Of a stretch of DNA of 47,680 bases, positions 7,591-28,659 are shown piece after piece (the stretch's first letter is position 1; each line of letters begins with the position of its first letter). The notes under the pieces are model-generated. The model was given only the letters and a program-made list of their open reading frames with translations, was not told where the DNA came from and did not search any database. Origin of the DNA: Thermoanaerobaculia bacterium (GTDB taxonomy: Bacteria > Acidobacteriota > Thermoanaerobaculia > Multivoradales > UBA5704); NCBI GenBank assembly GCA_044226625.1, contig JBGAGQ010000053.1, positions 1 to 47,680 of the forward strand, given 5' to 3'. A program made the translations under genes and the position numbers.

Positions 7591-7605
7591 AACCAGTGAA
7601 CACTT

Positions 7606-13997: not shown

Positions 13998-14324
13998 ATG
14001 CGGAATCGAACCCTTCTCGCGTTCATTCTCGGTCTGGCGGTTGCAATCGCAGCTCCCGGGAGCGCAAAAGCTTGCAACGAATGCGACGTCAATGCCCAGA
14101 ACATCGATTTCTGCCGGCCTGTGTTCGACAACGAGGTCGGCGCCACGGTTTGTGAGGCGGCCCCAGGGTACTGCAACCTTTCGGGGAGCGCCTGTTCTGA
14201 AATCACCGTCGGCGGCGGGGGATCCGGCGGCTCGGGTGGTGGTGGCGGAGGGTGCAATACGAGCTCGGGTTTCTGCCCTGCGGCATGTTTCAGTTGCTCG
14301 GGCGGTGGCCGCCCTCGCATCTGA
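13998..14324 (+). CDS. Small secreted Cys-rich protein (10 Cys, Gly linker)
   Basis: RBS-like aaggaag upstream, signal peptide ending AKA-C, a 6-Cys block, a GGGGSGGSGGGGGG linker and a 4-Cys block. Confidence 0.85.
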   Translation: MRNRTLLAFILGLAVAIAAPGSAKACNECDVNAQNIDFCRPVFDNEVGATVCEAAPGYCNLSGSACSEITVGGGGSGGSGGGGGGCNTSSGFCPAACFSCSGGGRPRI

Positions 14325-16630
14325 TGAAGCATCCGCTCTTGTGGCTGGTCCTCGCTCTCGCCACCGCTCCGGCGCAGGCTCTGGAGGACCGACCTAAGGA
14401 TGAGAACCCGGTAGCGGTCCGGTTCGAGATTTCGTCGCGGTCGCCAAGTCCGGCGGCCCCGGCCGGTCGCCTGAAACTCACTCAGGTCGGCCTTCCGAGC
14501 GACTCCCCCATGGAGATCTCAGAGCGCCTTACCGCTGGGAAGCCGATCGAAGTCCAGCTCATGCCGGGCACGGCCTGGATGGCCGAGGTGGAAGCCTTGG
14601 GATTCTGGGTGCGCCGCACCGCGTTCTCGGTCGCTTCGGCGAAACCTCAAGTTCTTCGTCTGGAAGCCTGGCCGCTCGGTGAAATTTTTGGGCGCCTTTC
14701 CGCGGCCGAAAAGACCGCGCTGCCCAAGAAGTTGATCGTCACGACCCTCCCATCTCGGAATTCGAAAAAAAGCGAGACGCCCCCAAAGGGGGAAATCGAA
14801 TGCCCTATCGACTCGGTCGGACGCTTTCGTTGCGATCTACCCGCGGCGGAGTACGACCTGTCTCTCTTGGCGGAGCCCTTCGTTCCCCTTTACGCCTGGG
14901 ACGTCGACGTCATGGCGGGCAAAGCGACCGACCTCAAGACCTTGACCCTTCGACGCGGTACCTCCCTTGCGGGATGGGTGGAAGGGAACGCAGGCAGCGC
15001 GATCGATCTGCAGACTTGCCGCGTCATCCTCACTCCTCTGCCGGCCGCGGGGATCGGGAACCTCGGCGAGGCCGAGAAGCTTTCGTCAATGCAAAGGCAA
15101 GTCCTCGTCAATCCTCGCGGCTTCTTTCAATTCGTGGGCATCGAGCCCGGGGTGTACAGCGTCGAGGTGGATCAGGGCAAAGCGTTCGCCGAGCCGCGAG
15201 GCCCCATTCGGGTCGTGGCAGGCGAGGAGACTTACCTTTCCGAGCCCTTCGTCCTCGAAGCGCCGTTCGATCTCGAGCTCTTCGTCGATCCACCGCGAGA
15301 CCGGCACGGGCACGCATGGACGGTCGAAGTCGAAAGGGCTCTGGGTCGCGATTTTCGAACCGAAACCGTCTACCAGGGCAGGACTTCCGACGACGGAGAA
15401 GCGCGGGTCGCGCACCAGCGAGCCGGCCGATACACGGTGCGGATCTACGACTCGACAGGTCAAAAAATGCTCACGGAGTCCGACCTCGCCTTCGATCCCT
15501 CGACTGGAGGGCGGCGCGTGTTCGAGATCCGTTGGATCGAAGTGGAGGGAAAAGTTCTCCTCGGGAAGGCCCCCCTCCGCGCCGCGCTTTGGTTTGGCGG
15601 CCGCCATGGTCTTACCTCGGTCCGATTCGACAGCGACGATGAGGGGCGGTTCGAAGGCTCCCTGCCGCGCGGCGGGCACTGGCTGATCGAGATCGAGGCG
15701 GCAGAACCTCACGCCATCCTAGAAGCGCATCGCACCCTGGATCCGAAGAGCGGACACGCCGAGATCGAGATCACGATTCCCGCGACACGGATTTTCGGCC
15801 GCGTCGTCGGTGCAAAGGGCCGACCGGAAGACAAGGCGATCGTCTCGGTGGTCGAACAGAGCGGCGCGAACCAATGGCTCATGACGGACGCCTCCGGCCA
15901 GTTCGAGTTTCGGGGTATCGCTCCAGGCTCGCTGAGTTTGGGAGCCGAATCGCGTGGCAACGGAGGAGGCGCGACGGAGCAGAGTCTGAGCCTCGCCGAG
16001 GACGGAGAGGTAGGTCCGATCGAGCTCAAGCTCAAGGAACAGGCGCTCTTTCTCGGGCGGGTTCTATCCTCGCGAGGGCTCGAAGAGGGCGCCGCCGTCA
16101 CCGTCGCAGGTGCGCGTCCCGCGCGCTACGGATTCGGCTCCGGCCGCAGCGCAAAGGACGGCGGCTTCGAGGTCCGGCTTCCCGCCGGGGTGGAGAGCGC
16201 CGTGGCGGCGGTGGGGGTCCTCGGCTCGTCGCTCACGGCGTTTGAGATGCGGCCCGGTCAGAAAGCGGATCTGGTGATCTCCGAGGTCGGCGGCATGGTC
16301 GAGGTCGACCTCGGCACGAACCTCGGTCGGCACCTCACGGAGCAGGACGCCTGGATCATGCTGTTCCAGAACGGCCTGGAGTTGCCGAGTCCAGCGCTCG
16401 GCGCCTGGGTTCGCACTCACCGGGCCGCACCCTCGAACGGAACGACGACGAGCTACCCGAACCTGGCACCCGCGGAGTACACGGCTTGTCTGGTTCCGCT
16501 TTCGGCACGACTCGACATGACCCGCGACGGCTGGTCGCCGGACCTTGCGATCGAATGCCGAACGGGAACGCTCGCGGCCGGGGAGACTTTGCGACTTGCG
16601 TTCGAGGGTGGCGCCGAGTCGAATCGATAG
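14324..16630 (+). CDS. Secreted protein with multiple carboxypeptidase-regulatory-like (prealbumin-fold) repeats
   Basis: TGATG overlap with the upstream gene. Signal MKHPLLWLVLALATAPAQA. Repeated GxV...(T/S)DxxGxF...PGxY units. Confidence 0.85.
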   Translation: MKHPLLWLVLALATAPAQALEDRPKDENPVAVRFEISSRSPSPAAPAGRLKLTQVGLPSDSPMEISERLTAGKPIEVQLMPGTAWMAEVEALGFWVRRTAFSVASAKPQVLRLEAWPLGEIFGRLSAAEKTALPKKLIVTTLPSRNSKKSETPPKGEIECPIDSVGRFRCDLPAAEYDLSLLAEPFVPLYAWDVDVMAGKATDLKTLTLRRGTSLAGWVEGNAGSAIDLQTCRVILTPLPAAGIGNLGEAEKLSSMQRQVLVNPRGFFQFVGIEPGVYSVEVDQGKAFAEPRGPIRVVAGEETYLSEPFVLEAPFDLELFVDPPRDRHGHAWTVEVERALGRDFRTETVYQGRTSDDGEARVAHQRAGRYTVRIYDSTGQKMLTESDLAFDPSTGGRRVFEIRWIEVEGKVLLGKAPLRAALWFGGRHGLTSVRFDSDDEGRFEGSLPRGGHWLIEIEAAEPHAILEAHRTLDPKSGHAEIEITIPATRIFGRVVGAKGRPEDKAIVSVVEQSGANQWLMTDASGQFEFRGIAPGSLSLGAESRGNGGGATEQSLSLAEDGEVGPIELKLKEQALFLGRVLSSRGLEEGAAVTVAGARPARYGFGSGRSAKDGGFEVRLPAGVESAVAAVGVLGSSLTAFEMRPGQKADLVISEVGGMVEVDLGTNLGRHLTEQDAWIMLFQNGLELPSPALGAWVRTHRAAPSNGTTTSYPNLAPAEYTACLVPLSARLDMTRDGWSPDLAIECRTGTLAAGETLRLAFEGGAESNR

Positions 16631-16758: not shown

Positions 16759-17154
16759 TCAGTTTGCCAGGCGTCCGCCAATCTCCAATCCGGGGTTCAA
16801 CGGCCTCAGGCGCCGCTCTAGGTCGGCGATCTTTTCGCCGAGGTCGGCCGCGAGGACTTCGAGCGCCAGGCAGAGCCGCTCGTCCTCTTCGGTCACGATG
16901 GAGGTCCACCGGGTCGCGGCGAGAGCCAAGAGCGCCTGTTGCGTATGAAAGAGGTCGGAAACACCGGCGCGCGAACAGGCTTGAAGCCACGGCTCTCCGC
17001 CGCCCACGCCCAACTCCTCCTCCAAGGCTTTTTCGGCCAGAGCCTCACAGGCGTCTTCCAGGCGTCGACGCAGCTCGGGCCGGGTGAAATGAACCATCAC
17101 GGACTCGCGCCACGGCGCCATTTCCGCCCAGCGGCGCTTGGAGCCGCTGCTCAC
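16759..17154 (-). CDS. Helical hypothetical protein
   Basis: 131 aa, Glu/Leu-rich. The GTG start overlaps the stop of the upstream gene (17151-17154). Confidence 0.6.
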   Translation of the reverse strand: MSSGSKRRWAEMAPWRESVMVHFTRPELRRRLEDACEALAEKALEEELGVGGGEPWLQACSRAGVSDLFHTQQALLALAATRWTSIVTEEDERLCLALEVLAADLGEKIADLERRLRPLNPGLEIGGRLAN

Positions 17155-17669
17155 TCGGGAAGCTGCCCGCTCCCTTCCGGTGCGGCCTCCCGGCGCCGGC
17201 CGAGGCGCCGCTCCAGCACGAGGGCGAAGTAGGCATCCGGCTCGAAACCGCCTCGGGCGAGGATCCGGGCAAGCACGCGAAGGCGCAGCCGGGCTCCGAC
17301 CGGCAACGGCCTGACGAGCAACAGGGCCTCCATACGAGCGGACAGCTCCGGCAGCAAGCGACCGCGCCCCTGGCGGAGAAGAACGGCACCGAGCTCCAGG
17401 AAGGCATCCGCCGACCGATAGACGTCTCCCGCCGCCCGGAAACCGCGCGCCGCGCGCCCGAAGCGCCGCGCCGCTTCCTCGAGGAGGCCGTCCTTGCGGG
17501 CTTCCTCGGCCCGCGCGAAGTCTTCCTCCGCCGCCCGCTCCAAGTCCGCCGACCTCGACCGAGAACCACCGAACGTCGGGCGCGCCGGTTTTCTTGCCGG
17601 CGCGGCGGGGGGCTCGGCGGCAGGGGCGATGGAGTCCGGAAGCCGGCCGCGGGCGGGGATCGAGCGCAT
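17151..17669 (-). CDS. Short TPR-like protein resembling the C-terminal TPR unit of the neighbouring HTH-TPR protein
   Basis: EEAARRFGRAARGFRAAGDVYRSADAFLELGAVLLRQG resembles IEEAAFRFSERDMAFDVALAILDLAALLLEAG in 17965..19389. Start at 17669 is inferred. Confidence 0.62.
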   Translation of the reverse strand: MRSIPARGRLPDSIAPAAEPPAAPARKPARPTFGGSRSRSADLERAAEEDFARAEEARKDGLLEEAARRFGRAARGFRAAGDVYRSADAFLELGAVLLRQGRGRLLPELSARMEALLLVRPLPVGARLRLRVLARILARGGFEPDAYFALVLERRLGRRREAAPEGSGQLPE

Positions 17670-17964
17670 GGCGCGCAGGGTAAACGTGAAGGTCTTCTCT
17701 AGGCGCCGAAGCGGCGCGATCGAAGACGCAGTTCCCGAATCCGACAACCTTCTTGGGGCGAAAGCCGAGGGGACGTCACCGACGATGGGGAGGACCAGCG
17801 AGACGAGGGCTCGGTCTCCCCTCGGCGAGAGCCTCGACGGCCTGCGCCGCGCAAGGCGAAACCTGGTTTCCGATCCGCGCCGCGGTCGGCGCGGCCCGCC
17901 GGCCGCTTGTCCCGAAAAGCGATTCAGCGGCAACAGGATCTATGGAAGATCCCAAGGAGATTCG

Positions 17965-19389
17965 ATGCCGAAGGTGAAGCTGCCGGTGACCAACGCGGCA
18001 TGGGTAACCCTGCGAACGTTGAAGCGCCTGACGCAAGAAGAGGCGGGCGAGCGGACCGGCAGGCCGTCGCAGGTGATCGAGATCGAGAACGGCCGGAGGA
18101 AGCTGCCGCGTCCCGAGCTGGACGAGATGACCGGCAAGATCGATGTGCGGCCCTCTTCCGTGCCCGTGGCGCTCGCCCTGGCGGCCGAGGAGATGCCGGG
18201 GGGCGAGCCCGACCACCCCTGGGAAGCGACGCCGGAGGATCGCCTGGAAGTCGAGCGCGCCGCGGTCGAGGCATCGGCCACCGTACGCAAGCTCCTGCTC
18301 GCCGAGGCGCGCGCGGCGCGCCACGCGGCCGACCGCGCCGAAGCGGGGCGCCTTTGGGAGCTCCTGAAACCGCACAGGCCCGAGCGTCGGCGGGTGATGG
18401 CCCGTCTCCAAGACTTCGCCACCTGGGCGATGTCCGAGCGGCTCTGTATCGAAAGCCTCCGCGAGGCGCCGCGCAACCACCGCATCGCCCGGTCCCTCGC
18501 CGAGCTGGCGGTGGAGATCGCACGGCGGCTGCCGGTCCGGAAGGGATTCAGCGACCGGGTGGAGGGGTACGCTCAGGCACACTTGGGGAACGCGCTGCGG
18601 GTCGGGAACGATTTCGAGGAGGCGGATCGCGCCTTTTCCTCGGTGGCGAAGCTCTGGCCCGACCCGCAGTCGAGCGACGCCTGCCCGCTGGACGCGACGC
18701 TCATCCCAGACTTAGAAGCATCACTTCGTCGCGCGCAGCGCCGCTTTCCGCTAGCGCTCGATCGGATAGAACAAGCGCTCGCCCTGGCTGTCGACGATCC
18801 GACCCGTGGGCGCATCCTCCTGAAGAAGGCCGACGTTCTCGAGCACTCCGGCGACCCCGAGGGCGCGGTGGCGACGCTCCGGATCGCGCGCCCCCTGGTG
18901 GACCTGAACGCGGACGCTCGATTGAGCTGCGTTGCCCGATTCAATCTGGCGGTCAACCTGCTCCATCTCGGCTTGCCCTCGGAAGCCGAGCCACTGATCG
19001 CCGAGGTAAGAACGATGGCGATCGAGCAGGGAAACGACCTCGACCTCGTACGCCTTGGCTGGCTCTCCGGCCGGCTCGCAGCGGCGAAGGGGAATCGAGC
19101 CTCTGCGATCGCGGCGATCGAGGAGGCGGCGTTCCGCTTCTCCGAACGGGACATGGCGTTCGACGTCGCGCTCGCCATTCTCGACCTTGCGGCGCTCCTG
19201 CTCGAAGCGGGAGAAGCGCGGGAAGCGGCGCGGCGGGTCGCCGAGGTGCAGCCGACCTTTCACGTGCGCAACGTACAGCGCGAAGAGCTTGCGAGCCTCC
19301 TCTTGTTCCTCCGCGCCGTCGAAGCCGAAGTGGCGACCGCCGCGTTGGCGCGCGCGGCGGCCGAAGCCTGGCGGCTGTTCGGTGTTTGA
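17965..19389 (+). CDS. XRE-type HTH plus TPR-repeat protein (RRNPP-like architecture)
   Basis: RBS aaggaga at 17954-17960. LRTLKRLTQEEAGERTG...VIEIENGRRK is an XRE HTH. TPR units follow (AHLGNALRVGNDFEEADRAF; ILLKKADVLEHSGDPEGAVATL; FNLAVNLLHLG). Confidence 0.85.
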   Translation: MPKVKLPVTNAAWVTLRTLKRLTQEEAGERTGRPSQVIEIENGRRKLPRPELDEMTGKIDVRPSSVPVALALAAEEMPGGEPDHPWEATPEDRLEVERAAVEASATVRKLLLAEARAARHAADRAEAGRLWELLKPHRPERRRVMARLQDFATWAMSERLCIESLREAPRNHRIARSLAELAVEIARRLPVRKGFSDRVEGYAQAHLGNALRVGNDFEEADRAFSSVAKLWPDPQSSDACPLDATLIPDLEASLRRAQRRFPLALDRIEQALALAVDDPTRGRILLKKADVLEHSGDPEGAVATLRIARPLVDLNADARLSCVARFNLAVNLLHLGLPSEAEPLIAEVRTMAIEQGNDLDLVRLGWLSGRLAAAKGNRASAIAAIEEAAFRFSERDMAFDVALAILDLAALLLEAGEAREAARRVAEVQPTFHVRNVQREELASLLLFLRAVEAEVATAALARAAAEAWRLFGV

Positions 19390-19415
19390 GGCTCAACCGG
19401 GGATTGCTGAATGGG

Positions 19416-19751
19416 TCATTGCTGGCAATAGCCATTGGGATCGATGCTGCTGCATCCTGCATCGCTGAAGACCTGCGCTGGCGCGCTCGCCACCCCACAG
19501 CGGCCATGTGGGTCAAGGCTGCACCCCTCTTCGCCGAAGATCGGGGCTGGCACAGCTACCGTGCCGCACGGTCCATTGGGGTCGAGGCTGCCCCCCCCAT
19601 CCGTCCAGAACGCGGACAAGAGCGACCAGCCCCGAGCAAACAAATCGGTGAAATCCCATGTCGGCGGAGAGGCACTCGCGGGGATGGCGGACAAGAGCAA
19701 GACGACGGGCAGCGCAAGGGCGAGAGCGAGCGGACGCGTCCGAGGGTTCAT
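19416..19751 (-). CDS. Secreted 111-aa peptide with three DPxG repeats
   Basis: Signal MNPRTRPLALALALPVVLLLSAIPASA. Repeats DGGGSLDPNGPC, EEGCSLDPHGRC and DAGCSSIDPNGYC. Confidence 0.8.
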   Translation of the reverse strand: MNPRTRPLALALALPVVLLLSAIPASASPPTWDFTDLFARGWSLLSAFWTDGGGSLDPNGPCGTVAVPAPIFGEEGCSLDPHGRCGVASAPAQVFSDAGCSSIDPNGYCQQ

Positions 19752-19827
19752 GGCGGCAGGCTCCTGGTCGGCCCCGAGGCCTCCGGCCGGGATGGCCGGC
19801 GGCCCGGTGCGAAAGGGTTGGGGGGTT

Positions 19828-19841
19828 CCCAAATATTTGGG
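19828..19841. promoter_or_regulatory. Perfect 14-bp palindrome CCCAAATATTTGGG, candidate operator
   Basis: AT-rich palindrome in the 109-bp divergent gap between the peptide gene and the second HTH gene. Confidence 0.55.
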
Positions 19842-19860
19842 GTTCTTTCTCGGGGGGATC

Positions 19861-20733
19861 ATGGAACGGAAACCGGTTGGGAAGCGAGACGTGCGCGACG
19901 GCCTCGGCGGCGAGGCCCGGACGGAACCCGAGGCGCCGGGCGGGCACGGCGGCGACCTATCCCCCAAAGCGGAGTTCTCCGCGCTGTCCGTGCGCTTCCT
20001 CGATGCGGTCGCCGGACCGCGCCACGACCAGTTCGCGGCGGAGGCTGGGATCAGCCCCGCCCGGGCGAGCCTCTACCGGTACGGCCGCACCGTCCCACGG
20101 CCGGCGACGATGCTCGACCTCACCCGCAAGATGCGGCTGCCCCTCGCCTGGGTCGAAGCCGTGACGGCTGATGCCCTGTCCTTCCGAGGGCGGAGCCAGG
20201 CGCCGGCCGGGAGCGAACCTCTGGACGCCGTGGCCGACAACCTCTCCCGCCGTCTGGCCGGCCGGCTCGCTCCCCGACTCGCGGCGATCCGCGGCGAGGC
20301 GGCTCCGCCCCCGCCGTTGCAGCCTTCCCTCGACCGGGCGGCCGCGGACCGCACCGAAGCCACCGAGCGCTGGGCCGAAATCGAGCTCCTCACCGAGGCC
20401 GAACGGTCAATCCTGGTGCTCGAGATCTCCTCGTTCCGAACCTGGGCGTTCGTCGAGCGGCTCTGCCGGAAGAGCGCCGAGGCGGAATCGACCGCCGAGG
20501 CGCTCGCCCTCGCGAAGCTCGCCGTCCGCCTGTCGCGCCGTGTCGCGGCGAGCCCTGGGTTTCGCGACCGTATTTCGGGATTCGCCCTGCTCCATTCCGC
20601 CCGCGCCTACGAGCGCGCGGGTGACCCGTTCCGCGCCCGCGAGGCCCGGGCGAGAGGGATGAGGCTGTTCGCAGAGGGGCGGAGGGAGGATCCGGGGTTG
20701 CTGGACGAAGGGATCGACGGTACGCCGAGTTGA
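19861..20733 (+). CDS. Second XRE-HTH protein with truncated TPR region, paralogue of 17965..19389
   Basis: HTH HDQFAAEAGISPARASLYRYGRTVP. Shared block ADRTEATERW...FRTWAFVERLC..SAEA...ALALAKLAV versus ADRAEAGRLW...FATWAMSERLC.ES..EA...ARSLAELAV. Confidence 0.78.
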   Translation: MERKPVGKRDVRDGLGGEARTEPEAPGGHGGDLSPKAEFSALSVRFLDAVAGPRHDQFAAEAGISPARASLYRYGRTVPRPATMLDLTRKMRLPLAWVEAVTADALSFRGRSQAPAGSEPLDAVADNLSRRLAGRLAPRLAAIRGEAAPPPPLQPSLDRAAADRTEATERWAEIELLTEAERSILVLEISSFRTWAFVERLCRKSAEAESTAEALALAKLAVRLSRRVAASPGFRDRISGFALLHSARAYERAGDPFRAREARARGMRLFAEGRREDPGLLDEGIDGTPS

Positions 20734-20759
20734 GGGGCGCCCTCCGGCGAACCATCCGG

Positions 20760-21395
20760 CCGGGACGGCAGCCGCCCAGCCTACCCCAGGCCTTCGCCAG
20801 CTCAATTCCGAGACCGGCCCGTCCGCAACCTGGCACGGCCACGCCACCTCTTGGCTGGGCCAGCCCACCGCTGGGCGGAGCCGGCTCGGTTCCGTCCTAG
20901 GCCAGCCCGCCTCTAACCTGAGCCAGCCCACCTCCGGGCTCGGTCAGCCCACCTCATGGCTGGGTCCGCTCGGTTCTGTGTTCGACCGGCTCACCACCGG
21001 GCTGGGCCAGCTTACTTCTGGATTCGGCCGGGCCACCTCCCGGCGGGACCAGCTCACCTCTCAGCCGGGCCAGACGACTCCTGGGCTCGGACAACCCAGA
21101 GGTAAGCCCGACCGGACCACCACCCGGCTCGGCCAGCCCACCTCTCGGCTGAGCCAGCCGGGTGCTGCGCTCGGCCAGCCCACCTCTCGGCTGCGCCAGC
21201 CCGGTCCTGCGCCCGGCCAGCCCACCTCTCGGCTGCGCCAGCCCGGATCTGCGCTCGGTCAGCCCACCTCTCGGCTGCGCCAGCCCGGTGCTGCGCTCGG
21301 CCAGCCCACCCGTCCGCTGCGCCAGCCCGGTGCTGCGCTCGGCCAGCCCACCTCCCGGCGGAGCCAGCCCAGTACGGAGCTGCGCCAGATCAGCC
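20760..21395 (+). repeat. Tandem array of about 30 degenerate 21-bp units with a 42-bp higher-order period at the right end
   Basis: Units such as ggccagcccacctctcggctg and cgccagcccggtgctgcgctc. One + frame reads heptads GQPTSRL/RQPGAAL. Confidence 0.9.
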
Positions 21396-21755
21396 CCGGC
21401 GCGGCGGTCTTTTCGTCCGGCGCGAAGCTCGCCGACGGCGAACCGAGGGCTCGGCTGGAGTCGCCTCTCGGCCCCTTCGAGAAGAGCGGCAGCAAACCGC
21501 GTCCCTCGGGTGATGCCTCTTCGGGATAACTTTTTATTTTAACCCGGATCGACCCGAGTTTCAAAAGGCCCTTTTGGGCCAAGCCTGTTTCGTACGGTTC
21601 GCGGCGTCGGAAAGCGGCACCCACCGGAGCCTCGAGCTCGCCGTTCATGACTTGCGGCTGGCGCTCAAGTCGCCCCCTGGTTCCCGTCGGTAACCGCCCG
21701 ATCTGCCCCGAACGGAATGTTCCGTCTGGGCGACCTCAAGAAGGAGGCCTCACCG

Positions 21756-22097
21756 ATGAGCCCCAACACCACGACCCCGTCTGTCTCGCCGACGTCCCCC
21801 GCCCCGGCCCCGACTCTGAAATCCGAGCGCATTCAGCTTCGGCTCCGGTCCCTGGGTTGGATCGTCTCGACCAACCGGCGCCTGATCTCGCGGCGTTTCC
21901 AGTTCGCGACGCAGAAGGAAGCGATGGCCTTCCTCAACCTCGCGCTGGCGCTGGCCGAAAGCTCCCAGGCGTCGCGCCGGCGTCCCCCGGCATTTCAGAT
22001 CCGGGGTTCGCAAGTGCGGATGTCCATCTCGTCTTGCGGCCCGGCGCTCGCGAAGGCCGAGTTGACTCTCGCACGGTCGGTCAGCCTGCTGGGCTGA
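21756..22097 (+). CDS. Pterin-4a-carbinolamine dehydratase (PCD/DCoH)-fold protein, catalytic HHP motif absent
   Basis: RBS aaggagg at 21741-21747. L..ERIQ..L..LGW...LISRRFQF....A.AF.....LAE...V...ELTLAR follows the PCD pattern, but RRRPP replaces HHP. Confidence 0.7.
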   Translation: MSPNTTTPSVSPTSPAPAPTLKSERIQLRLRSLGWIVSTNRRLISRRFQFATQKEAMAFLNLALALAESSQASRRRPPAFQIRGSQVRMSISSCGPALAKAELTLARSVSLLG

Positions 22098-22162
22098 TCG
22101 ATTCACGATCGAAAGCGAACCGCGGGCCGCATTCCGCGTCCCGAACCCATGAGGAGAAAGCC

Positions 22163-22549
22163 GTGCAAGACACTTCGTACGCGGACAAAATCAACAACTG
22201 GCAGATCACCGCCCAGAACCTCTTGGAAGTTCAGTCCTCCATCCCCGGATTCGATCCGCCGTTCAACGACTTCAAGCAGAAGGTCGACGATCTGCGGGCA
22301 ACCCACGACAAGGTCCAGATGCTGCGCGGCGCCTTGCACGAGGCGGTGGTTCTCCGCCGAGCGCTGGATCAGGAGACCCGCCGGTCGGCCCGCCGCCTGG
22401 CGGCCGTCACACGGGGACATCTCGGATTCGACAACCCGAAGCTCGTGAGCTTCAACTTCCGCTCGGAGGATTCCACGCGGCGGGGCAAGAAGGCGAAAGC
22501 TACCGTGGCATCCATGATCCCCCCCGAAGCGGGACCGGAGCAGCCGTAA
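22163..22549 (+). CDS. 128-aa helical/coiled-coil hypothetical protein with basic tail
   Basis: RBS gaggag and GTG start. MQDTSYADKINNWQ...long amphipathic helices...GFDNPKLVSFNF...RRGKKAK. Coding-like codon usage. Confidence 0.8.
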   Translation: MQDTSYADKINNWQITAQNLLEVQSSIPGFDPPFNDFKQKVDDLRATHDKVQMLRGALHEAVVLRRALDQETRRSARRLAAVTRGHLGFDNPKLVSFNFRSEDSTRRGKKAKATVASMIPPEAGPEQP

Positions 22550-22617
22550 CCGATGCTCCCGTCGCGCGCTGACGTGCCCCGGGGGGCGCTCGGTGGGTGG
22601 CTGAGAAGGCCAGAGAA

Positions 22618-22649
22618 GGGGTGAGGAGGCGCCGCCTCACCCCGACTTT
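22618..22649 (+). terminator. GC hairpin, possible terminator after the 22163..22549 gene
   Basis: ggggtgagg-N8-cctcacccc followed by a weak T tract (gacttt). Confidence 0.35.
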
Positions 22650-22823
22650 CCCGGCGAAAGTGACATCGAAACGCGAAAAATCACGCCCTTCTTGACACCT
22701 GCAACATAGGCGTGCGATGGTATCGGCAGGACGGTACTTATTATGCATAGGGACATACGACCCGAGTGAACCCGAGAAGACGGCATCCGATTCGGGCGGC
22801 ATGTGTTTCCCAGGAGGTGCGCC

Positions 22824-23297
22824 TTGGCGAAGACGTTCAAGATCACTCTGAGAGGATCGCTTCTCGACGCAGTCGAGGAGTTGGCGGCCAATGACGGAGT
22901 GACGGTCAGCATGGCGATCGTCCGCGTCGTCCTGCTCTGGAATCTGGCCGGCTCCAATCGGCCTTTACCCGCCGACCTGGAGATCCTGGACGACGGTTTG
23001 ACCCTGGCGCTGGACGAAGGGATTCGCAGCTACCTACGATCGGTGGACGCATTCGCTCGGTCGCAAAAGATCCTTTCCGAGCTTCCCGCGGTGCTTCAGG
23101 CGACGCTCCCCTTCGTGTCGCTCCTCTCCGACCTGGACGTCCTGGGCGACGCGGTATCGCACCTACCGGGTTTGATCGACGAGGTCCGCCAAGGACGGCG
23201 CATCGGAGCGAAACTCCTCCGCCAGGCCGAGGCTCACGGGCTCGTCTTTCGCTACGACCGGAGCGGCAAGACGCCAGCTCCCCAAAACGACCCCTAG
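22824..23297 (+). CDS. Protein with N-terminal ribbon-helix-helix (CopG-like) DNA-binding domain
   Basis: RBS aggaggt at 22812-22818 and TTG start. KTFKITLRGSLLDAVEELAANDGVTVSMAIVRVV fits the RHH pattern. Confidence 0.65.
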   Translation: MAKTFKITLRGSLLDAVEELAANDGVTVSMAIVRVVLLWNLAGSNRPLPADLEILDDGLTLALDEGIRSYLRSVDAFARSQKILSELPAVLQATLPFVSLLSDLDVLGDAVSHLPGLIDEVRQGRRIGAKLLRQAEAHGLVFRYDRSGKTPAPQNDP

Positions 23298-23327
23298 CTA
23301 GATGCCCTGATTGCGCGTCCCGAGAGA

Positions 23328-24020
23328 TTACGCCGCGAAAGCGGCCGGTGCCGCTTCGAAGAGCCGGCGAGGAATCTCTTCGCCGGCCTCTTCGTCCAAG
23401 CCTGCGGCATCGGGGACCGCGAGAGCCGGAGAAACCGGCCCGGCCGGCGACCGCCAAGGCGGCGTCAGGCCGAGCACACATTCCTCCAAAGCCTTTGCCG
23501 TCTCGAGCGCCAGCACGAGGCGCTGGACCCGCCACATCGCTTCGACCAAGGGCTGCAGCAGGTCTTCCTCCTCGCCCAGGGCTCGCAAGCGCTCGATCGC
23601 GGGCGCCGCAAGACGGATCGCGGTCCGCAACTGGCTACGGTTGACGCGGCGCACCGATCGCGAGACCTGCTGCATCGTGGGGTCGACCGGACTCTGCCCC
23701 GGGGCGTCCGCCGCCTCGACCTCCTCGTTGCGCTGCCGACGCACCGCCGCCTTGAGGTCCGCCACGTCGACACCGAACAGGGCCGCAACGTGGGCCTGAC
23801 TCCGGCAATGGCTTTCCAGAGCCTGCCGGTTCGCCGTGGACGGGCGGATCGCCTGGCAGCACGGCTGACGCTCCCGTGGCGAGGGCTGCCAGAGCCCTTC
23901 GACCCACTCCCCCTCCGGTTGCGTCCTGCGAGCGGCTCGGGACACGAACTCCGCGAGCGCGAGGCGCAAGCGCCCCACGGGAAGCTCGCTCTCTCTGGAC
24001 TCCTTACGCTTCGTACGCAT
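23328..24020 (-). CDS. Hypothetical protein with CC...HC...H putative metal-binding domain and helical C-terminus
   Basis: PEGEWVEGLWQPSPRERQPCCQAIRPS...LESHCRSQAHVAALFGV. RBS-like gaggaag upstream. Confidence 0.7.
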   Translation of the reverse strand: MRTKRKESRESELPVGRLRLALAEFVSRAARRTQPEGEWVEGLWQPSPRERQPCCQAIRPSTANRQALESHCRSQAHVAALFGVDVADLKAAVRRQRNEEVEAADAPGQSPVDPTMQQVSRSVRRVNRSQLRTAIRLAAPAIERLRALGEEEDLLQPLVEAMWRVQRLVLALETAKALEECVLGLTPPWRSPAGPVSPALAVPDAAGLDEEAGEEIPRRLFEAAPAAFAA

Positions 24021-24240
24021 GATCTTCCTCGAAAAGTTCTTAGGACACCCACATAAGAGAGTGCATCAAAACAGCCGAAGAGGGACTCAATTTTCCCTCA
24101 AAGCGAAACAAGTGTCTCCACTCTAGAACAAACGGGCAAAAACGTGAATTTACGCAGCACCCGAGGAAGCCGGGGCCGCGGAGCGGCTCGCAGCTCCGAA
24201 ATCTATGGCGGGATCGGCCCGGTTCTTGTACGGTCCTCGA

Positions 24241-27200
24241 ATGGCAATAGCTAAGTCATCTCAAGGCTTCCGAAGGACCCTCTCTGCGCTCTTGGGCATG
24301 AACGATCCTGGGGCCTTCGAGGAACTGGTTGCGCGCCTCTTATCCCAATTGATCGGAGCGCCCATCCGGAGAGCCCACTCCGGTTCGCAGCACGGCAAGG
24401 ACGCTCTGTCCGACGACGGCACCATCGCCATCGAATGCAAGCTCTATCGCGACAAGACCCGTCTCGACACACGAGCCCTGATTGCTGAACTGGCGGAAGC
24501 ACGAGCCAATCATGCCGACCTCCAACTCTGGGTCCTTGCCTCCACCAAGACAATCGGCGCGGACGCGAAGGAGAAGCTCACCCAAGAGGCTCAGAAGATG
24601 GCGCTTGGGGTGCTCGTCCTGGATGCCGCTGCCGCTCGGCATCGCCTCGGCGACATCCCGGCGATTTCCGCTTTGTGCTCGACCGACGTCCATTCGACCC
24701 TGGCTAACCTCGCCCGCCTCACCGCGGGCGAACGGCGAGCCGTTCGAAGCGAGCTCGAAGCGATCCAGCGCGCTCCAGGTTTCGAGTCCTGGCGGAGCTG
24801 GCTGATCGAGGAAATCCGGGACCGATTGCCCATTTGGCGATTCGCGGTCTCACGCCGGAACCGGACTCTCGCCGAGCGAATTCGGAGAGCAGCTTTCGAC
24901 TTCGGGACGGAGTACGACGCATCGAAAGCGGTGCCCCGGCGGATACGAGCGGAGCTGGAAGCGTGGTTGCAGAAAGCGATCACAGAACCCTGCGAGAACA
25001 CTCCCCTTCTCGCCGTGGTCAAGGGCGAGCGTTACGACGGCAAGACCTGGCTCACATACCAGTGGCTCCTCGAAATCGCGGCAGGATCAACGTTGCCTAT
25101 CTTCTTCGTGAGCTCGGCCCGTGGTTCTCAGTCCGATCGAGACTTGCTGCAATACATCCATGAAGATTTCGCCCCGGCCTTCGGTGGCGCTGATCCTTAC
25201 ACCGTCGGCTCCTATGTCAGGCATTTTCGAAATGCCAACTCGGGAAGCGGGCCCTGGGCCTTGGTGATCCTCGACGGCCTGAACGAATATGAGAATTTGG
25301 GCTGGCGAAGACACCTGGCTACCGCTCTGAGCTTGGGCGATCCAGAGTATCGACCGGCCGCGGTGATCGCCACCGTACGCGAGCGGTCCTGGCAAAGTTT
25401 GAAGAAACACCTGCCGAGAGAGGCCGGCTCGAATTTGGCGCCATTCATGCCTCCGGCATACTCCAGAGATTGGGGGGGCGGGACGGGCGGAGGAGATCTC
25501 TCCAACCTACCAAGCCGCGACTCGGCGAAGCGTGAGTTAAACCTTGCTGAATTTTCCCTCGGAACGTTCGACGAGGAAGAACTTCAGACGGCCCTTACGC
25601 GGCTGGGTCTGTCGCCCGACTTCCTGTCGGCGCTCTCCAGGAGCGCTCTGGAGCTCGCCCACCGGCCCCGCTATCTCGGCCTCATCGCGAAGTACTTCGA
25701 CCAATTGAACCAATACTCCGCCGTGACACCCGAGGTTCTCCACTGGCTTGACCTTGGCGACAAGGTCGGAAGAACCCGAGAAGGACTCAAAGACTGGGGA
25801 GCTCAGAAGCTCGGGGAATTCCTAAGAAACCTGGCGAGGAGATGGCGAGCCAGGAGTTTTCTCGACTTGACGAGTGTCCGAGAGGCCCTCGGGAAGCTGA
25901 CGACCTCGGTCGATGCGGTCTTGTCCGACCTTGAGTCCGAAGGTGTCCTCCTGAGCGACGGCCGACGGTTTGCAGTCGAGCCGGAGAGGTTGGCCATGGG
26001 CTACGGCCTATTCCTTAGAGATGCGCTTTTCGAGGCTGCCACGCAGAAGCGGAATCTGGACGAAGCGCTCAGCGACCTCCTCGCGCCGCTTGTCGATGTA
26101 GACGAAACCGTAGACGCCTTACGCGCCGCCGCAACGTTGGCGCTTATCGAAGGCGAGGGCTCGTTCCTACAAGGCGACGCCCCTAAAGAACCCACTGAAG
26201 TGCTTGATACCCTGCTCGTCCGATGGATCAATTCTCGCAATCTTCGGACGAAGGACCTGGAAGCCATCTATCAATTGCGGCGCCTCCTGTGGCGACCGCT
26301 TCTTCGCCTAAACCCGGAGCTTTGGCGAGAATCAGAACGAGATTGCCGCGGGAGAGAGCTCGCTCTCATGGTCTTCGGCGAGCTCGTTGAAGCGGATGGC
26401 GAGGCCAAAGCGAGCCTGCGCAGATCCGTTCGCGACTGGTTCCGCCAGATTCCAGCCAAGGGTGGCTGGTGGAGCAGAGCGAAAGCTCGCACAGAGCTTG
26501 GCCATGTTGACGATTCCGTAGCGGCGGATGCGGTTCACGCTCGCTTAAGTCACAAGATCAGCGAACCGGAAGCTCAGTCACTGGGCATTTCGATTTCCGA
26601 GAATCTTGACGTCTTGAGCCTTCAATCCTTGGGCCTCTATCTGGCTGGCAGAGCCCCCGGCCTCATCGATCCCGACGACCTTCTTTCCTTTGTGGCCAGC
26701 CGCTTCATTTTGGAAGAACCGATCGACTCGGGAGACTGCTGGGTGATCCGCCGTGTTCTGGAAAGGACCCCTACCTCATGGTTCCAAGATGCCACCATGA
26801 AAGAGGTCGGTCCGACAAACTTGTATGCGAGATCTCTTTTGCAGCTCGTCGAGATCTCAGAGCGTGCCGACCTCGAAGCTTTAAAGCCACGACTACGCTC
26901 CTTGGTGCCGCACGAAAGGCGGCGGCGTTTCTCGACTTGGCCGACTCGTAAGAATGTGCATTCTTTACTCCAGGGGCACATCGAAGACGGGGCTGATGTG
27001 CGTCCCTTCGCGGAGTCAGTCCGGGGAATTGTTATCGACCCAGAACTCCCGAAGCCACCGAATCGCTTAGGGCAAGCGATCGCACGGCGTGTCGCGAACG
27101 CTTGCACGAAGCGAAGACTTGCATATCGGCTTGATCTTCATGATCTGGAACAACTTCTCCCGGCCTTAGCAGCTTGGGCACCAAGAGTCGGCCGAGAGAT

Positions 27201-28659
27201 CGTTAGGAAGACCCTGCAAAATCTACCCGCCGATGTTCTCCACAAGAAGCGGCCCCCGTTGATGGAGCTGCGGGGGCATGCGGCGCTTGCCTCCGGCGCG
27301 GCCCGCAGGGCTCTCCAGGAAACACTCACACTGTCCTACCGTCAGGGGAAAGACGGATGGGTTCAGCAAAGGGAGATCACCTTGGCCCTTCTCCCGGGCT
27401 CGGGAGTCGAAGAAACGCTGAGGTTGTTGGTCGACATGGGAGATTTCGAACATCGAGAAACCTTTGAACTCGGGGGCGCACTCGCAGAAGCCACCGACTT
27501 GAGGAGGCTTGGGGTCGCGCTGGTCAGAGCAAGGAATCCTGAGCGCAAGAGGCGGATTCGAATTCTCCTAGCTTTCGCTGCCAGATCGTCAAATGCCATC
27601 AGCGCTGCCTTGAGCACCATTGATCTCCCCCCTGGCGAGATCAGGGCGATAACCGACACCCTTCCCTCGGAGGAAAGGATAAGCCACCCTCAAGAGTACC
27701 TGGACGAGATCACAGCGAGCCTTAAGAAAATTACAAGTGCGCAGGCGGCTCAGCAGGGAATGTGGAGCCACCGCCACCTTCCGGCAAAGATGGTCAAGCA
27801 TCTAGATATGGATCGAGTTTCAGAATGGCTTCCGCTGCTGGTACCTCGTGACGGGATTGCCCAGCCCCGACATTGCGGTCTGATTCTCCCAACTTTCGAA
27901 TGGTGCCTCGATCACTCAGACTCGCGCGCGGAAAGTCTTTGGCCGTTCGTCAGTCCATTCCAGCGGCAAAGATTTTCGATCGGTATCCTGAGACTCTCCG
28001 TAGTCGGCGTGCCCTGGGCGCTCCATCTGCTCAATCGACCGAGTGCAGACGACCAAATGTCGCTACGCTTCTTGAGAAATCTGATTCTCGATGCTCGAAA
28101 TGACCTTGAGATCTGCGAAATCTCTCTCGGAGCATGCTTCCAGGATCGACGGCGCCTAAAGGAGCTTGCCCAAGAGCTGGCCATCGATCAAAAGGCGGAG
28201 ATGCGTGCGCGGGGAGTGGCGATTCTCGGCTGGCTCGTGGAAGGGGCCGAGCTACTCAGGAAGATCCAGAAAAGAGATCCCTCCCGCTGGGTCCGAGGCC
28301 AGGCTGAGATTGCCCTTGATCGACATGTTGTCGACTCCTGGGCACATCACTGGCTGGATCAATTCTTCGCGGCAAGAACTGCGACCGGGCGCTGGGCGGC
28401 TGGGCGGCTATTCCTCGAATCTGCGGATCGCCGAGTCGACAGTTGGGCCTGGAAGAAGGTTCGGAGCAAGAAATGTCGGAAGCGGGTTCGGGGAGAGGCC
28501 TTTCTTCTCCTACGAGCTGCTCAGGATCGATCCAAGAAAGACGACTCAAAGCTAAAGGATCACTTCCTCGGATCGAACGTCAAGGCGCTGGACAGCACTG
28601 TCGATCCTTGGCGGCGTGACGACGAATGGGTTCTCGCCCACTATGGCCGGGGCGATTGA
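24241..28659 (+). CDS. Large protein: PD-(D/E)xK (Mrr-like) nuclease, STAND/NACHT-like P-loop NTPase and long helical-repeat region; putative antiphage defence protein
   Basis: Nuclease motif FEELV...GSQHGKD...IAIECKLY. Walker A GERYDGKT at 25024-25047 and Walker B LVILDGLNE. HEAT-like C-terminus (RARGVAILGWL...DPSRWVRGQA). The start could be 24205. Confidence 0.82.
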   Translation: MAIAKSSQGFRRTLSALLGMNDPGAFEELVARLLSQLIGAPIRRAHSGSQHGKDALSDDGTIAIECKLYRDKTRLDTRALIAELAEARANHADLQLWVLASTKTIGADAKEKLTQEAQKMALGVLVLDAAAARHRLGDIPAISALCSTDVHSTLANLARLTAGERRAVRSELEAIQRAPGFESWRSWLIEEIRDRLPIWRFAVSRRNRTLAERIRRAAFDFGTEYDASKAVPRRIRAELEAWLQKAITEPCENTPLLAVVKGERYDGKTWLTYQWLLEIAAGSTLPIFFVSSARGSQSDRDLLQYIHEDFAPAFGGADPYTVGSYVRHFRNANSGSGPWALVILDGLNEYENLGWRRHLATALSLGDPEYRPAAVIATVRERSWQSLKKHLPREAGSNLAPFMPPAYSRDWGGGTGGGDLSNLPSRDSAKRELNLAEFSLGTFDEEELQTALTRLGLSPDFLSALSRSALELAHRPRYLGLIAKYFDQLNQYSAVTPEVLHWLDLGDKVGRTREGLKDWGAQKLGEFLRNLARRWRARSFLDLTSVREALGKLTTSVDAVLSDLESEGVLLSDGRRFAVEPERLAMGYGLFLRDALFEAATQKRNLDEALSDLLAPLVDVDETVDALRAAATLALIEGEGSFLQGDAPKEPTEVLDTLLVRWINSRNLRTKDLEAIYQLRRLLWRPLLRLNPELWRESERDCRGRELALMVFGELVEADGEAKASLRRSVRDWFRQIPAKGGWWSRAKARTELGHVDDSVAADAVHARLSHKISEPEAQSLGISISENLDVLSLQSLGLYLAGRAPGLIDPDDLLSFVASRFILEEPIDSGDCWVIRRVLERTPTSWFQDATMKEVGPTNLYARSLLQLVEISERADLEALKPRLRSLVPHERRRRFSTWPTRKNVHSLLQGHIEDGADVRPFAESVRGIVIDPELPKPPNRLGQAIARRVANACTKRRLAYRLDLHDLEQLLPALAAWAPRVGREIVRKTLQNLPADVLHKKRPPLMELRGHAALASGAARRALQETLTLSYRQGKDGWVQQREITLALLPGSGVEETLRLLVDMGDFEHRETFELGGALAEATDLRRLGVALVRARNPERKRRIRILLAFAARSSNAISAALSTIDLPPGEIRAITDTLPSEERISHPQEYLDEITASLKKITSAQAAQQGMWSHRHLPAKMVKHLDMDRVSEWLPLLVPRDGIAQPRHCGLILPTFEWCLDHSDSRAESLWPFVSPFQRQRFSIGILRLSVVGVPWALHLLNRPSADDQMSLRFLRNLILDARNDLEICEISLGACFQDRRRLKELAQELAIDQKAEMRARGVAILGWLVEGAELLRKIQKRDPSRWVRGQAEIALDRHVVDSWAHHWLDQFFAARTATGRWAAGRLFLESADRRVDSWAWKKVRSKKCRKRVRGEAFLLLRAAQDRSKKDDSKLKDHFLGSNVKALDSTVDPWRRDDEWVLAHYGRGD

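Follow-up and report, generated by a model that had tools for sequence, protein, structure and literature searches.

The core of this locus (positions 17965-20733 of the window, by which we mean the whole 47,680-nucleotide stretch analyzed) raises the question of whether an uncultured, soil-type diderm bacterium carries a peptide signaling cassette of the RRNPP kind. A receptor gene beside a propeptide gene is the two-gene signature used by RRNPP_detector, and RRNPP systems are described, in the literature consulted, for Firmicutes and their mobile elements (PMC10075063). An initial inspection, hereafter the sequence-only reading, had noticed two XRE-HTH/TPR paralogs flanking a putatively secreted repeat peptide; this arrangement was upheld, and coding-type GC1/2/3 patterns support the ORFs at the positions given for the region. 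It had also placed the locus in a diderm organism. All of the closest homologs are labeled Thermoanaerobaculia or Acidobacteriota, indicating a diderm-type member of the Acidobacteriota (Thermoanaerobaculia), and the window encodes SurA. We lean, if only somewhat, toward regarding the core as an RRNPP-like receptor/propeptide signaling cassette in a diderm phylum.

The proposed receptor, HTH-TPR1 (17965-19389, plus strand), is a full-length cytoplasmic XRE-HTH and TPR regulator of 474 aa, with no hydrophobic segment in its sequence. Pfam searches matched it to HTH_3 (E = 7.8e-4) and several TPR families, every match falling under the curated cut-offs, and its HTH-TPR homologs carry PF01381, PF13560 and PF12844; orthologs are 62-70% identical. 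An AF2 model (pLDDT 88.6) shows an HTH and, after it, a TPR superhelix of 9-10 helical hairpins. The top structural matches of the modeled TPR domain included Rap, also in peptide-bound form, and NprR, tied with LGN, so that the predicted domain resembles the peptide-binding type. The second regulator, HTH-TPR2 (19861-20733, plus strand), is a short paralog of 290 aa that retains an HTH (HTH_3, Pfam E = 0.013) and the initial third of the TPR region, lacking the C-terminal TPRs; it shares 40% identity with HTH-TPR1 over 103 aa. This short form is kept in six orthologous loci (57-62% identity), and four more distant loci encode a full-length protein. No RRNPP-specific Pfam family matched in the region.

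The putative propeptide gene (19416-19751, minus strand) encodes 111 aa, in which a predicted signal peptide precedes a Trp-containing helix, DLFARGWSLLSAFW, and three repeats of the form G-(C)-x-[LI]-DP-x-G-x-C, the last stopping 4 residues short of the C-terminus. Its N-terminus reads as an n-h-c, Sec-type signal ending at ASA, followed by SP. The protein matches no Pfam, NCBIfam or PHROG family and has no annotation in the source; it belongs to a family with 2101 cluster representatives in metagenomes. Family precursors span 80-125 aa, exceeding the usual length of RRNPP propeptides; a hydrophobic run at the N-terminus is seen in 243 of 260 members, most proteins contain 2-4 motif copies, and the median distance from the last motif to the C-terminus is 4 residues, RRNPP pheromones likewise tending toward a C-terminal position. 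Within the motif the residues G, D, P and G are fixed and the other positions vary, so specificity among paralogs would be possible. The pN/pS ratio of 0.45 across seven orthologs indicates, at the level of sequence, purifying selection on the gene.

The D-P-x-G core hardly varies although the receptors are only about 30% identical, a pattern as compatible with a common signal for processing or folding as with a ligand. This bears on a different and, in our view, rather unlikely explanation, namely that the HTH-TPR protein senses something else and controls a small exported protein that acts outside (for example as a small disulfide-looped matrix, adhesion or metal-binding protein) and is never a ligand. 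The near-invariant G..DPxG core and paired cysteines do look like a structural repeat, and one 731-aa protein (P0353) bears many such repeats. However, this explanation implies twenty to sixty dedicated regulator/target pairs per genome, every tiny product having one or two regulators to itself; many private pairs are unusual for structural proteins and typical of signaling cassettes such as Rap-Phr. The TPR domain, moreover, is predicted to be of the peptide-binding type, and Pfam identified no other ligand-sensing domain in the HTH-TPR proteins.

The pairing itself recurs widely. Within the genome that contains the window, a peptide-family gene lies less than 1 kb from 16 of 22 full-length HTH-TPR paralogs, HTH-TPR1 being one of the 22; inspection by eye adds two pairs (C39 and C8), bringing the total to 18/22, and the remaining four genes have no detectable peptide neighbor. 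Sixteen of the 17 strong peptide matches (E < 1e-8) in this genome are located within 1 kb of an HTH-TPR gene, and one peptide (C60) lacks a receptor neighbor. Since the DNA within 1 kb of the 22 full-length genes amounts to about 1% of the genome, this adjacency exceeds chance. In other Thermoanaerobaculia genomes the association was seen at 21/21 loci: a full-length HTH-TPR gene adjoins the peptide gene at all 11 loci fetched by the peptide, and both the peptide and a second HTH-TPR gene are present at all 10 loci retrieved from Thermoanaerobaculia MAGs with the receptor as query. The sequence-only reading had proposed co-occurrence of peptide homologs with HTH-TPR genes as its test, and the counts of 16/17 and 21/21 are strongly in its favor. 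Copy numbers of the two genes track one another across 41 genomes (Spearman rho 0.93, for genomes that include non-independent kin and with the top receptor counts being at least 42), and neither gene is found in three of these. Peptide genes number 4-60 per genome within the bacterial family, and none was detected among 200 other genomes of the phylum Acidobacteriota. Two receptor genes around one peptide gene is the usual layout in the subfamily of the window. The HTH-TPR/peptide pair is thus a recurrent module and not a one-off.

High copy number, together with the occurrence of two tandem cassettes at L055, would also be expected of a selfish or mobile cassette, in which the HTH pair would act as the CI/Cro-like switch for a small element, mobile or of phage origin, whose copies spread by mobility. 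The 21-bp tandem arrays associated with cassettes point the same way, as do the match of HTH-TPR2 to a PHROG 'transcriptional repressor' (E = 0.0018) and weak leads from a CC-HC-H protein, described below, to viral clusters (score 0.81). We nevertheless consider this explanation very improbable. Integrase, transposase, replication and structural phage genes are absent from 16759-24020 and from the inspected paralogous loci, orthologous cassettes keep their place and neighbors across genomes, and the paralogs are only 28-39% identical, which argues for old duplicates rather than recent transposition. More generally, searches of Pfam, NCBIfam, PHROGs and PADLOC assigned no gene in 16759-24020 to an enzyme or mobility family, in agreement with the initial inspection; apart from HTH, TPR and Pterin_4a, the sole matches were one to PIN, below threshold, in a 260-aa ORF and the PHROG repressor match. 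Neither these databases nor the literature searched yielded a matching description of the cassette as a known system.

Candidate operators are present in both promoter gaps. The divergent gap between the peptide gene and HTH-TPR2 contains the palindrome CCCAAATATTTGGG (19828-19841, core CCCAA-N4-TTGGG), already picked out by the initial inspection and conserved in orthologs; the gap is 86% identical among six orthologs, versus 72-73.5% for the flanking coding DNA. Paralogous loci have different palindromes in the same place. A candidate second operator, GAAACCTGGTTTC (17858-17870), lies in the gap upstream of HTH-TPR1; L055 and L058 conserve it, and L057 shows mismatches. Adjacency and conserved promoter palindromes would be equally expected if the regulators merely controlled an exported structural product.

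Upstream of the core, a small helical protein (17151-17669, minus strand; about 172 aa from the ATG at 17669, within an ORF open to 17933) had been described as a stand-alone TPR fragment. It has no Pfam TPR match. Its family profile, however, matches residues 340-456 of HTH-TPR1 (hhalign probability 88.7%, E = 2.6e-6), which by profile comparison identifies it as a stand-alone homolog of the C-terminal TPRs of the receptor; homologs sit upstream of cassettes at other loci. The adjacent gene, h131 (16759-17154, minus strand), encodes a predicted helical protein of 131 aa with no family in Pfam, NCBIfam, PHROGs or PADLOC, and its start overlaps the TPR-fragment stop by 4 nt, so that the two probably form one operon. 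Homologs of h131 adjoin cassettes at L055-L058, L061, L039-L041 and C13, and at six of 10 related loci both genes accompany the cassette. Downstream of the core, the previously noted 21-bp array extends over 20770-21420 as a 21/42-bp tandem array of about 30 units of 21 bp, overlapped by a putative ORF (20978-21529, plus strand) with heptads LGQPTSR and LRQPGAA. Related arrays occur at seven or more other loci, and 3/8 are within 1 kb of cassette genes.

The cassette lies in a lower-GC stretch of the window with Rhs toxin-type ORFs and defense-like genes. Rhs-repeat ORFs form the upstream flank; downstream are a protein of 1484 aa whose N-terminus is of the Mrr_cat type, an AAA ATPase, SurA and Mfd. 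Such surroundings, another Cys-rich, apparently secreted ORF nearby (13998-14324) and the many paralogous copies of fast-evolving, small Cys-rich peptides would suit a competition module, in which the Cys-loop peptide would be bacteriocin- or RiPP-like, the HTH pair would switch its expression, and an immunity or helper role would fall to h131 or the TPR fragment. We judge this improbable: no modification enzyme, dedicated ABC exporter or recognizable immunity protein is found in or beside the cassettes examined, many members of the peptide family lack cysteines entirely, and h131 and the TPR fragment are absent at four of the 10 related loci. The suggestion that the cassette regulates the neighboring toxin and defense genes was unsupported; paralogous cassettes occur in many unrelated contexts.

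The remaining genes, which had been grouped with the cassette as a single accessory set, belong elsewhere. A PCD/DCoH-like gene without catalytic histidines (21717-22097, plus strand) matches Pterin_4a at E = 1.2e-5 (25.8 bits against a Pfam cut-off of 26) and PDB chains of PCD2/DCoH at E = 0.04-0.9. The catalytic-histidine motifs of pterin-4a-carbinolamine dehydratase are named HHP and SHD. In alignment with 4c45 (PCD2) and 1ru0, RRP replaces HHP and ISSC replaces TSHD; the protein therefore shares the fold family of this dehydratase/DCoH but not its motif histidines, as had been noticed earlier, and is not expected to be that enzyme. Paralogs are located at C57, C109 and C125. It is followed by hel137 (22136-22549, plus strand), a helical protein of an Acidobacteriota-specific family with 12 other paralogous matches in the genome, whose nearest atlas clusters are unnamed Acidobacteriota families (score 0.97), and by a 164-aa protein (22803-23297, plus strand) with a coding-type GC pattern and weak paralogs at C13 and C57; the latter had been called RHH, and no family match in Pfam or NCBIfam and no PDB sequence match was obtained. 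The CC-HC-H protein (23328-24020, minus strand; 230 aa) has a conserved N-terminal domain followed by a helical hairpin, and the motif for which it was named holds up, as C53, C54, H70, C71 and H76 are invariant among 32 homologs; a fold search gave no clear match. These four genes occur in the same order on another contig, 3.6 kb from its cassette with unrelated genes between, and the block is also found without any cassette. The PCD-like gene is thus part of a separate recurring block outside the cassette core, and the accessory genes form two recurring sub-modules, this block and the h131/TPR-fragment pair, rather than one unit.

We propose that the 111-aa precursor would be exported by Sec and cleaved beyond the cytoplasm to yield one or more short peptides based on (F/W)-x3-G-(C)-x-[IL]-D-P-x-G-x-(C), each of which, in this subfamily, would probably be disulfide-closed. 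The peptides would then re-enter the cell and bind the cytoplasmic HTH-TPR regulator at its TPR domain, altering how it binds palindromic operators in the cassette's two promoter gaps (autoregulation) and at target genes. HTH-TPR2, without C-terminal TPRs, may be a peptide-blind partner or antagonist that shares the operator, and the stand-alone TPR protein may modulate receptor oligomerization. A diderm requires an outer-membrane route in both directions; the genome encodes one OppA-type binding protein, and no exporter or importer gene is present in the cassette. The RRNPP-like reading is favored by adjacency, tracking copy numbers, the family features, motif pattern and pN/pS value of the peptides, the palindromes and the OppA-type gene. 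It is weakened by the missing RRNPP Pfam match, longer precursors, lack of a transporter gene, invariant core, unpaired receptors (4/22) and solitary peptide. The RRNPP-analogous signaling originally proposed is partly supported: the gene pair with its conservation and expansion, the fold and the conserved palindromes are documented, and we infer export, processing, re-import, peptide binding and all regulatory effects.

Compared with RRNPP/RRNPPA systems (PlcR-PapR, NprR-NprX, Rgg-SHP, PrgX-cCF10, AimR-AimP; Rap-Phr), the cassette shares a receptor with an N-terminal HTH and C-terminal TPR-type superhelix, a neighboring gene for a small propeptide that is predicted to be exported and has its conserved motif close to the C-terminus, numerous paralogous cassettes in each genome, and palindromes at its own promoters. 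It differs in its occurrence in diderm Acidobacteriota (Thermoanaerobaculia) rather than in Firmicutes, their plasmids or phages, in a longer propeptide that combines a conserved Trp helix with a motif of 12-13 residues, the latter often present as 2-4 Cys-bracketed copies, and in the two receptor genes per peptide gene usual in this subfamily. Rap proteins lack an HTH, unlike the receptor here, and act on response regulators. Several putative mature-motif copies per propeptide nonetheless recall Rap-Phr systems with tandemly duplicated pheromones, duplicated Phr propeptides being the subject of PMC11343458. The presence of two HTH paralogs with one peptide gene appears analogous to a further case. 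Rgg2/Rgg3-SHP of streptococci combines two HTH regulator paralogs with one pheromone class, and by this analogy the two-regulator layout suggests activator/antagonist logic, although the second regulator of the present cassette is truncated in the lineage of the window and full length in more distant loci.

Tentatively, one Thermoanaerobaculia family may use a very large private repertoire of peptide pheromones, with 20-60 receptor/propeptide cassettes per genome that encode multi-copy, often disulfide-closed C-x-[IL]-DP-x-G-x-C peptides recognized by HTH-TPR receptors in the cytoplasm. No earlier case of RRNPP-style peptide quorum sensing through a cytoplasmic receptor would then be known from a diderm phylum, whether the system arose independently or shares an ancient origin with those of Firmicutes. 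According to PMC10075063, Gram-negative quorum sensing is presented in teaching as relying on small molecules, with cytoplasmic TPR-receptor peptide signaling a hallmark of Gram-positive bacteria and their phages. If correct, a receptor/propeptide family so strongly expanded throughout a lineage of Acidobacteriota would break this division. It would also make available a new family of peptide ligands, short and possibly cyclic, together with their matched receptors and operators. Even without a ligand role, the peptides constitute a large, unannotated family tightly coupled to a regulator family. Acidobacteriota are an environmentally dominant and poorly understood phylum, and signaling of this kind, if true, would offer a handle on the social behavior of uncultured soil and bioreactor bacteria.

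The source genome comprises 6.6 Mb in 133 contigs (97.9% complete, 5.5% contamination); the window is one of these contigs in full (47.7 kb), with a GC content of 56-73%. The ORFs proposed between 16759 and 24020 by the sequence-only reading are those with a coding-type GC1/GC2/GC3 pattern. At their core, HTH-TPR1 (17965-19389, plus strand) encodes a full-length putative receptor of 474 aa with sub-threshold Pfam matches to HTH_3 and several TPR families. A convergent gene for a putatively secreted 111-aa peptide follows (19416-19751, minus strand), and beyond it, in divergent orientation, lies HTH-TPR2 (19861-20733, plus strand; 290 aa). HTH-TPR2 is a paralogue of HTH-TPR1 (40% identity over 103 aa) whose TPR region ends after about the first third. 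The stop codons of HTH-TPR1 and the peptide gene are 26 nt apart (19390-19415), leaving scant room for terminators, and the two convergent transcripts possibly overlap. A search of the entire window at the Rfam gathering score returned zero families, and PHROGs and PADLOC gave no match to the cassette genes except a weak repressor PHROG for HTH-TPR2.

HTH-TPR1 had 26 matches in its own genome, and tblastn placed paralogues of the peptide beside several of them. We ran receptor and peptide family profiles over all six-frame segments of this genome. A peptide-family match lay within 1 kb of 16 of the 22 full-length HTH-TPR genes (E<1e-80). Two more receptors, on contigs C39 and C8, adjoin a signal-peptide ORF whose motif is slightly divergent by eye, bringing the total to 18/22; for the other four, profile search and inspection by eye found no candidate peptide neighbour. 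Reciprocally, 16 of 17 peptide matches at E<1e-8 had an HTH-TPR gene less than 1 kb away, the exception being on contig C60. Since the DNA within 1 kb of the 22 receptors makes up, by our arithmetic, about 1% of the genome, this adjacency is far above chance. Two gene orders recur: a convergent receptor, peptide and second receptor as in the window (contigs C46, C13, C57 and C5), and a co-directional arrangement with the peptide before the receptor (nine loci). Such paralogue expansion is typical of signalling cassettes; that the cassette is instead a selfish mobile switch seems to us very improbable.

The same pairing is found in other genomes. Loci fetched with the peptide from five genera contain an adjoining full-length HTH-TPR gene in 11/11 cases, so that peptide homologues co-occur with HTH-TPR genes within this genome and beyond it, as the sequence-only reading needed them to. 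The peptide profile (E<=0.01) matched 35 of 41 related genomes, among them every one of the 24 that share the taxonomic family of this genome (4-60 matches each), with a patchy distribution in other families of the order; in 200 genomes spread evenly over the phylum, there were no peptide matches at E<=1e-5 among the 26 candidates scored per genome. Across the 41 genomes, receptor counts (E<=1e-40; counted up to 42 per genome) and peptide counts gave a Spearman coefficient of 0.93 (0.82 within the family), which is descriptive only because related genomes are not independent; three of the 41 have neither gene. A scan of 1.84 billion cluster representatives with the profile of the peptide family gave 2101 proteins with a cut-off of E<=1e-3 and 289 with one of E<=1e-10. 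All named peptide matches are called 'hypothetical protein' and lack a Pfam domain; receptor homologues, from Thermoanaerobaculia or Acidobacteriota, carry only the names 'helix-turn-helix transcriptional regulator' or 'TPR repeat protein'.

With an alignment of close HTH-TPR1 orthologues as query, we obtained ten loci from Thermoanaerobaculia MAGs (L053-L062), all of which show a convergent peptide gene followed by a second, divergent HTH-TPR gene. Six of the ten are close orthologues with receptors 62-70% identical, and their second regulator (57-62% identity) has the short form seen in the window; the four more distant loci encode a full-length one. The short version is thus a maintained derivative rather than an assembly accident. 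One locus (L055:2175-8768) holds two whole receptor/peptide/second-receptor cassettes in tandem, with the gene pair for the 131-aa helical protein and the TPR fragment between them.

Judged from its sequence, the peptide starts with a Sec-type signal of n/h/c layout that closes with ASA|SP; a Trp-containing helix (DLFARGWSLLSAFW) and three G-(C)-x-[LI]-D-P-x-G-x-C repeats follow, the repeats separated by Pro-rich linkers and the last of them ending four residues from the stop. Its pN/pS of 0.45 across seven orthologues indicates a real gene under purifying selection. We examined the 260 best-scoring family members below 200 aa, a set biased towards the query's subfamily. An N-terminal hydrophobic run is present in 243 and a W...W/F pair in 213; most have 2-4 motif copies, and the last motif lies a median of four residues from the C-terminus. 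In 722 motif instances, retrieved with a pattern that required D-P-x-G, G occupies position -3 in 95%, and Cys positions -2 and +6 in 73% and 64%. Single repeats now and then lack one cysteine and several own-genome paralogues have none, leaving (F/W)-x3-G-x-x-[ILMFT]-D-P-x-G as the core common to all paralogues. The motif exists also as a long repeat protein: P0353 (731 aa) has an N-terminus of signal type and strings together over 25 x-DP-x-G-(R/K) units in tandem. A secreted repeat peptide could be a structural or effector product with the HTH-TPR protein as its dedicated regulator, which we think rather unlikely, and we give still less weight to a bacteriocin-like competition module.

The HTH-TPR1 model, folded with 54 homologues (pLDDT 88.6, pTM 0.83), predicts an HTH region of five helices at the N-terminus, followed by one long helix and a TPR superhelix. 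N209, R212 and W366, by the concave face of the TPRs, are invariant residues. Its best Foldseek matches in the PDB were peptide-bound Rap proteins (4gyo_A, E 1.9e-5, target TM 0.61) and the TPR domain of LGN. These rows are essentially tied, which makes the modelled domain a TPR superhelix of peptide-binding type and speaks neither for nor against kinship with RRNPP receptors. Co-folding the TPR domain (residues 90-474) with the whole secreted peptide (29-111) scored 0.01, with the mark at 0.32, and gave no answer either way.

The intergenic DNA of the cassette has operator-like features. The gap between the peptide gene and HTH-TPR2 (19752-19860) contains the palindrome CCCAAATATTTGGG at 19828-19841 and is 86% identical across six orthologues, compared with 72-73.5% for flanking coding DNA; the core CCCAA-N4-TTGGG is kept in both sequence variants of this gap. 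Paralogous cassettes carry, at the same position and in the same style, different palindromes (GGGGGAAATATCCCCC, GGGGAAATGTCCCC and TGGAAATCTCCA), and the exact 14-mer is not common to those of this genome. Of its 58 genome matches with up to three mismatches, the copy in the window is the single one close to a peptide gene. A second palindrome, GAAACCTGGTTTC at 17858-17870, lies in the gap upstream of HTH-TPR1 (17670-17964, containing GAAACCnGGTTTC); L055 and L058 keep it, and L057 has an imperfect version. Two HTH proteins and two operator-like sites would fit an autoregulated switch. A GC-rich inverted repeat, CCGGCC-GGGAT-GGCCGG (19775-19800), falls in what is presumably the peptide gene's 5' leader and is invariant in seven orthologous loci. 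Elsewhere in the genome, an element of about 40 nt with an internal GC hairpin, GCGTTGCC(C/A)(C/T)CGCGGGCGC(G/C)GGGGCCAATACCGG, occurs about 80-110 nt upstream of four peptide genes (C109:45720, C76:29711, C125:67678 and C39:4983), all cysteine-free and of one subfamily.

The sequence-only reading had joined core and accessory genes in one module. The receptor/peptide pair recurs as such; the accessory genes fall into two blocks. Block A comprises genes for a 131-aa helical protein (16759-17154) and a small TPR-homologous protein (17151-17669), which probably form one operon divergent from HTH-TPR1. In 6/10 related loci and several paralogous ones, at least one of the two is found upstream of the cassette. 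The second protein stands alone but is homologous to the C-terminal TPRs of the receptor (hhalign 88.7%, E 2.6e-6), a kinship shown by profile comparison alone, as a BLASTP comparison of its 260-aa ORF with HTH-TPR1 of the window was not significant.

Block B comprises a PCD-like protein, which lacks the catalytic histidines as originally proposed, a helical protein (hel137), a 164-aa protein and a 230-aa CC-HC-H protein. Its order is repeated on contig C57, where toxin-antitoxin-like and transporter-like genes (identified by eye from N-terminal sequence) separate it from the cassette, and parts of it occur on C13, C123, C125 and C109. Of the 12 other hel137 matches, by our count, 3 have a cassette no more than 10 kb away, so its link to the cassette is loose. 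Sequence and fold searches gave block B genes no assignable function; for the 164-aa protein, previously read as RHH, the best match among PDB sequences was a designed protein at E 0.05. In 32 homologues of the CC-HC-H protein, the residues that give it this name are invariant. The N-terminal domain of that protein (23328-24020; PEGEW..GLW..CC..NxQALESHCR..H) is modelled with high confidence and barely covered by fold-search rows, which fall mostly on residues 109-192.

The 21/42-bp tandem array at 20770-21420 is one of a family found at eight or more loci, with 13-36 units of 21 bp, often 42 bp, each (C124:7860-8606, C58:227229-227724, C93:412-809, C69:31807-32088, C81:13305-13721, C72:10805-11095 and C132:103242-103572); three of the eight have an HTH-TPR or peptide gene less than 1 kb away. 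The units hold short palindromes (ACCAnTGGT, CTGGnCCAG), and heptads such as (I/N)TTGLD(Q/R) and TTGLDQI appear in one reading frame; as stop codons are absent from the unit, this open frame is no evidence of coding, and the array may be either a coding heptad repeat or a DNA element. The C81 array abuts sequence with a tRNA-gene-like translation, and the C132 array has a different unit.

Between pntB and surA (about 3000-31000), most 1-kb bins have a lower GC content of 50-64%, with the cluster at 17-24 kb inside this stretch reaching 63-73%. The stretch also holds Rhs-repeat ORFs (5886-7730 and 8841-13553), a 1484-aa protein (24205-28659) whose N-terminus is of Mrr_cat type, and an AAA ATPase (29045-30544) that matches phrog_13260 at E 2.9e-80. 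Regulation of the neighbouring Rhs and defence genes by the cassette, as had been suggested, found no support. Possibly better target leads are block A and, just upstream of the cluster, a 108-aa Cys-/Gly-rich secreted ORF (13998-14324) with a 792-aa CarboxypepD_reg-domain protein (14252-16630; the pair spanning 13998-16630). Relatives of the large protein directly adjoin cassettes in two other genomes (L060:11117-13327 and L061:7719-9434) and an HTH-TPR fragment in this one (C132:4136-6238).

A search of CC-licensed PubMed Central papers and bioRxiv found no RRNPP-type system in this diderm phylum. By its anatomy, as read from sequence, the core corresponds to the working definition of RRNPP, the receptor/propeptide quorum sensing described mainly in Firmicutes and their phages: a putatively cytoplasmic HTH-TPR receptor with an adjoining, apparently exported propeptide. 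On balance, we lean towards the view that the cassette mediates RRNPP-like signalling.
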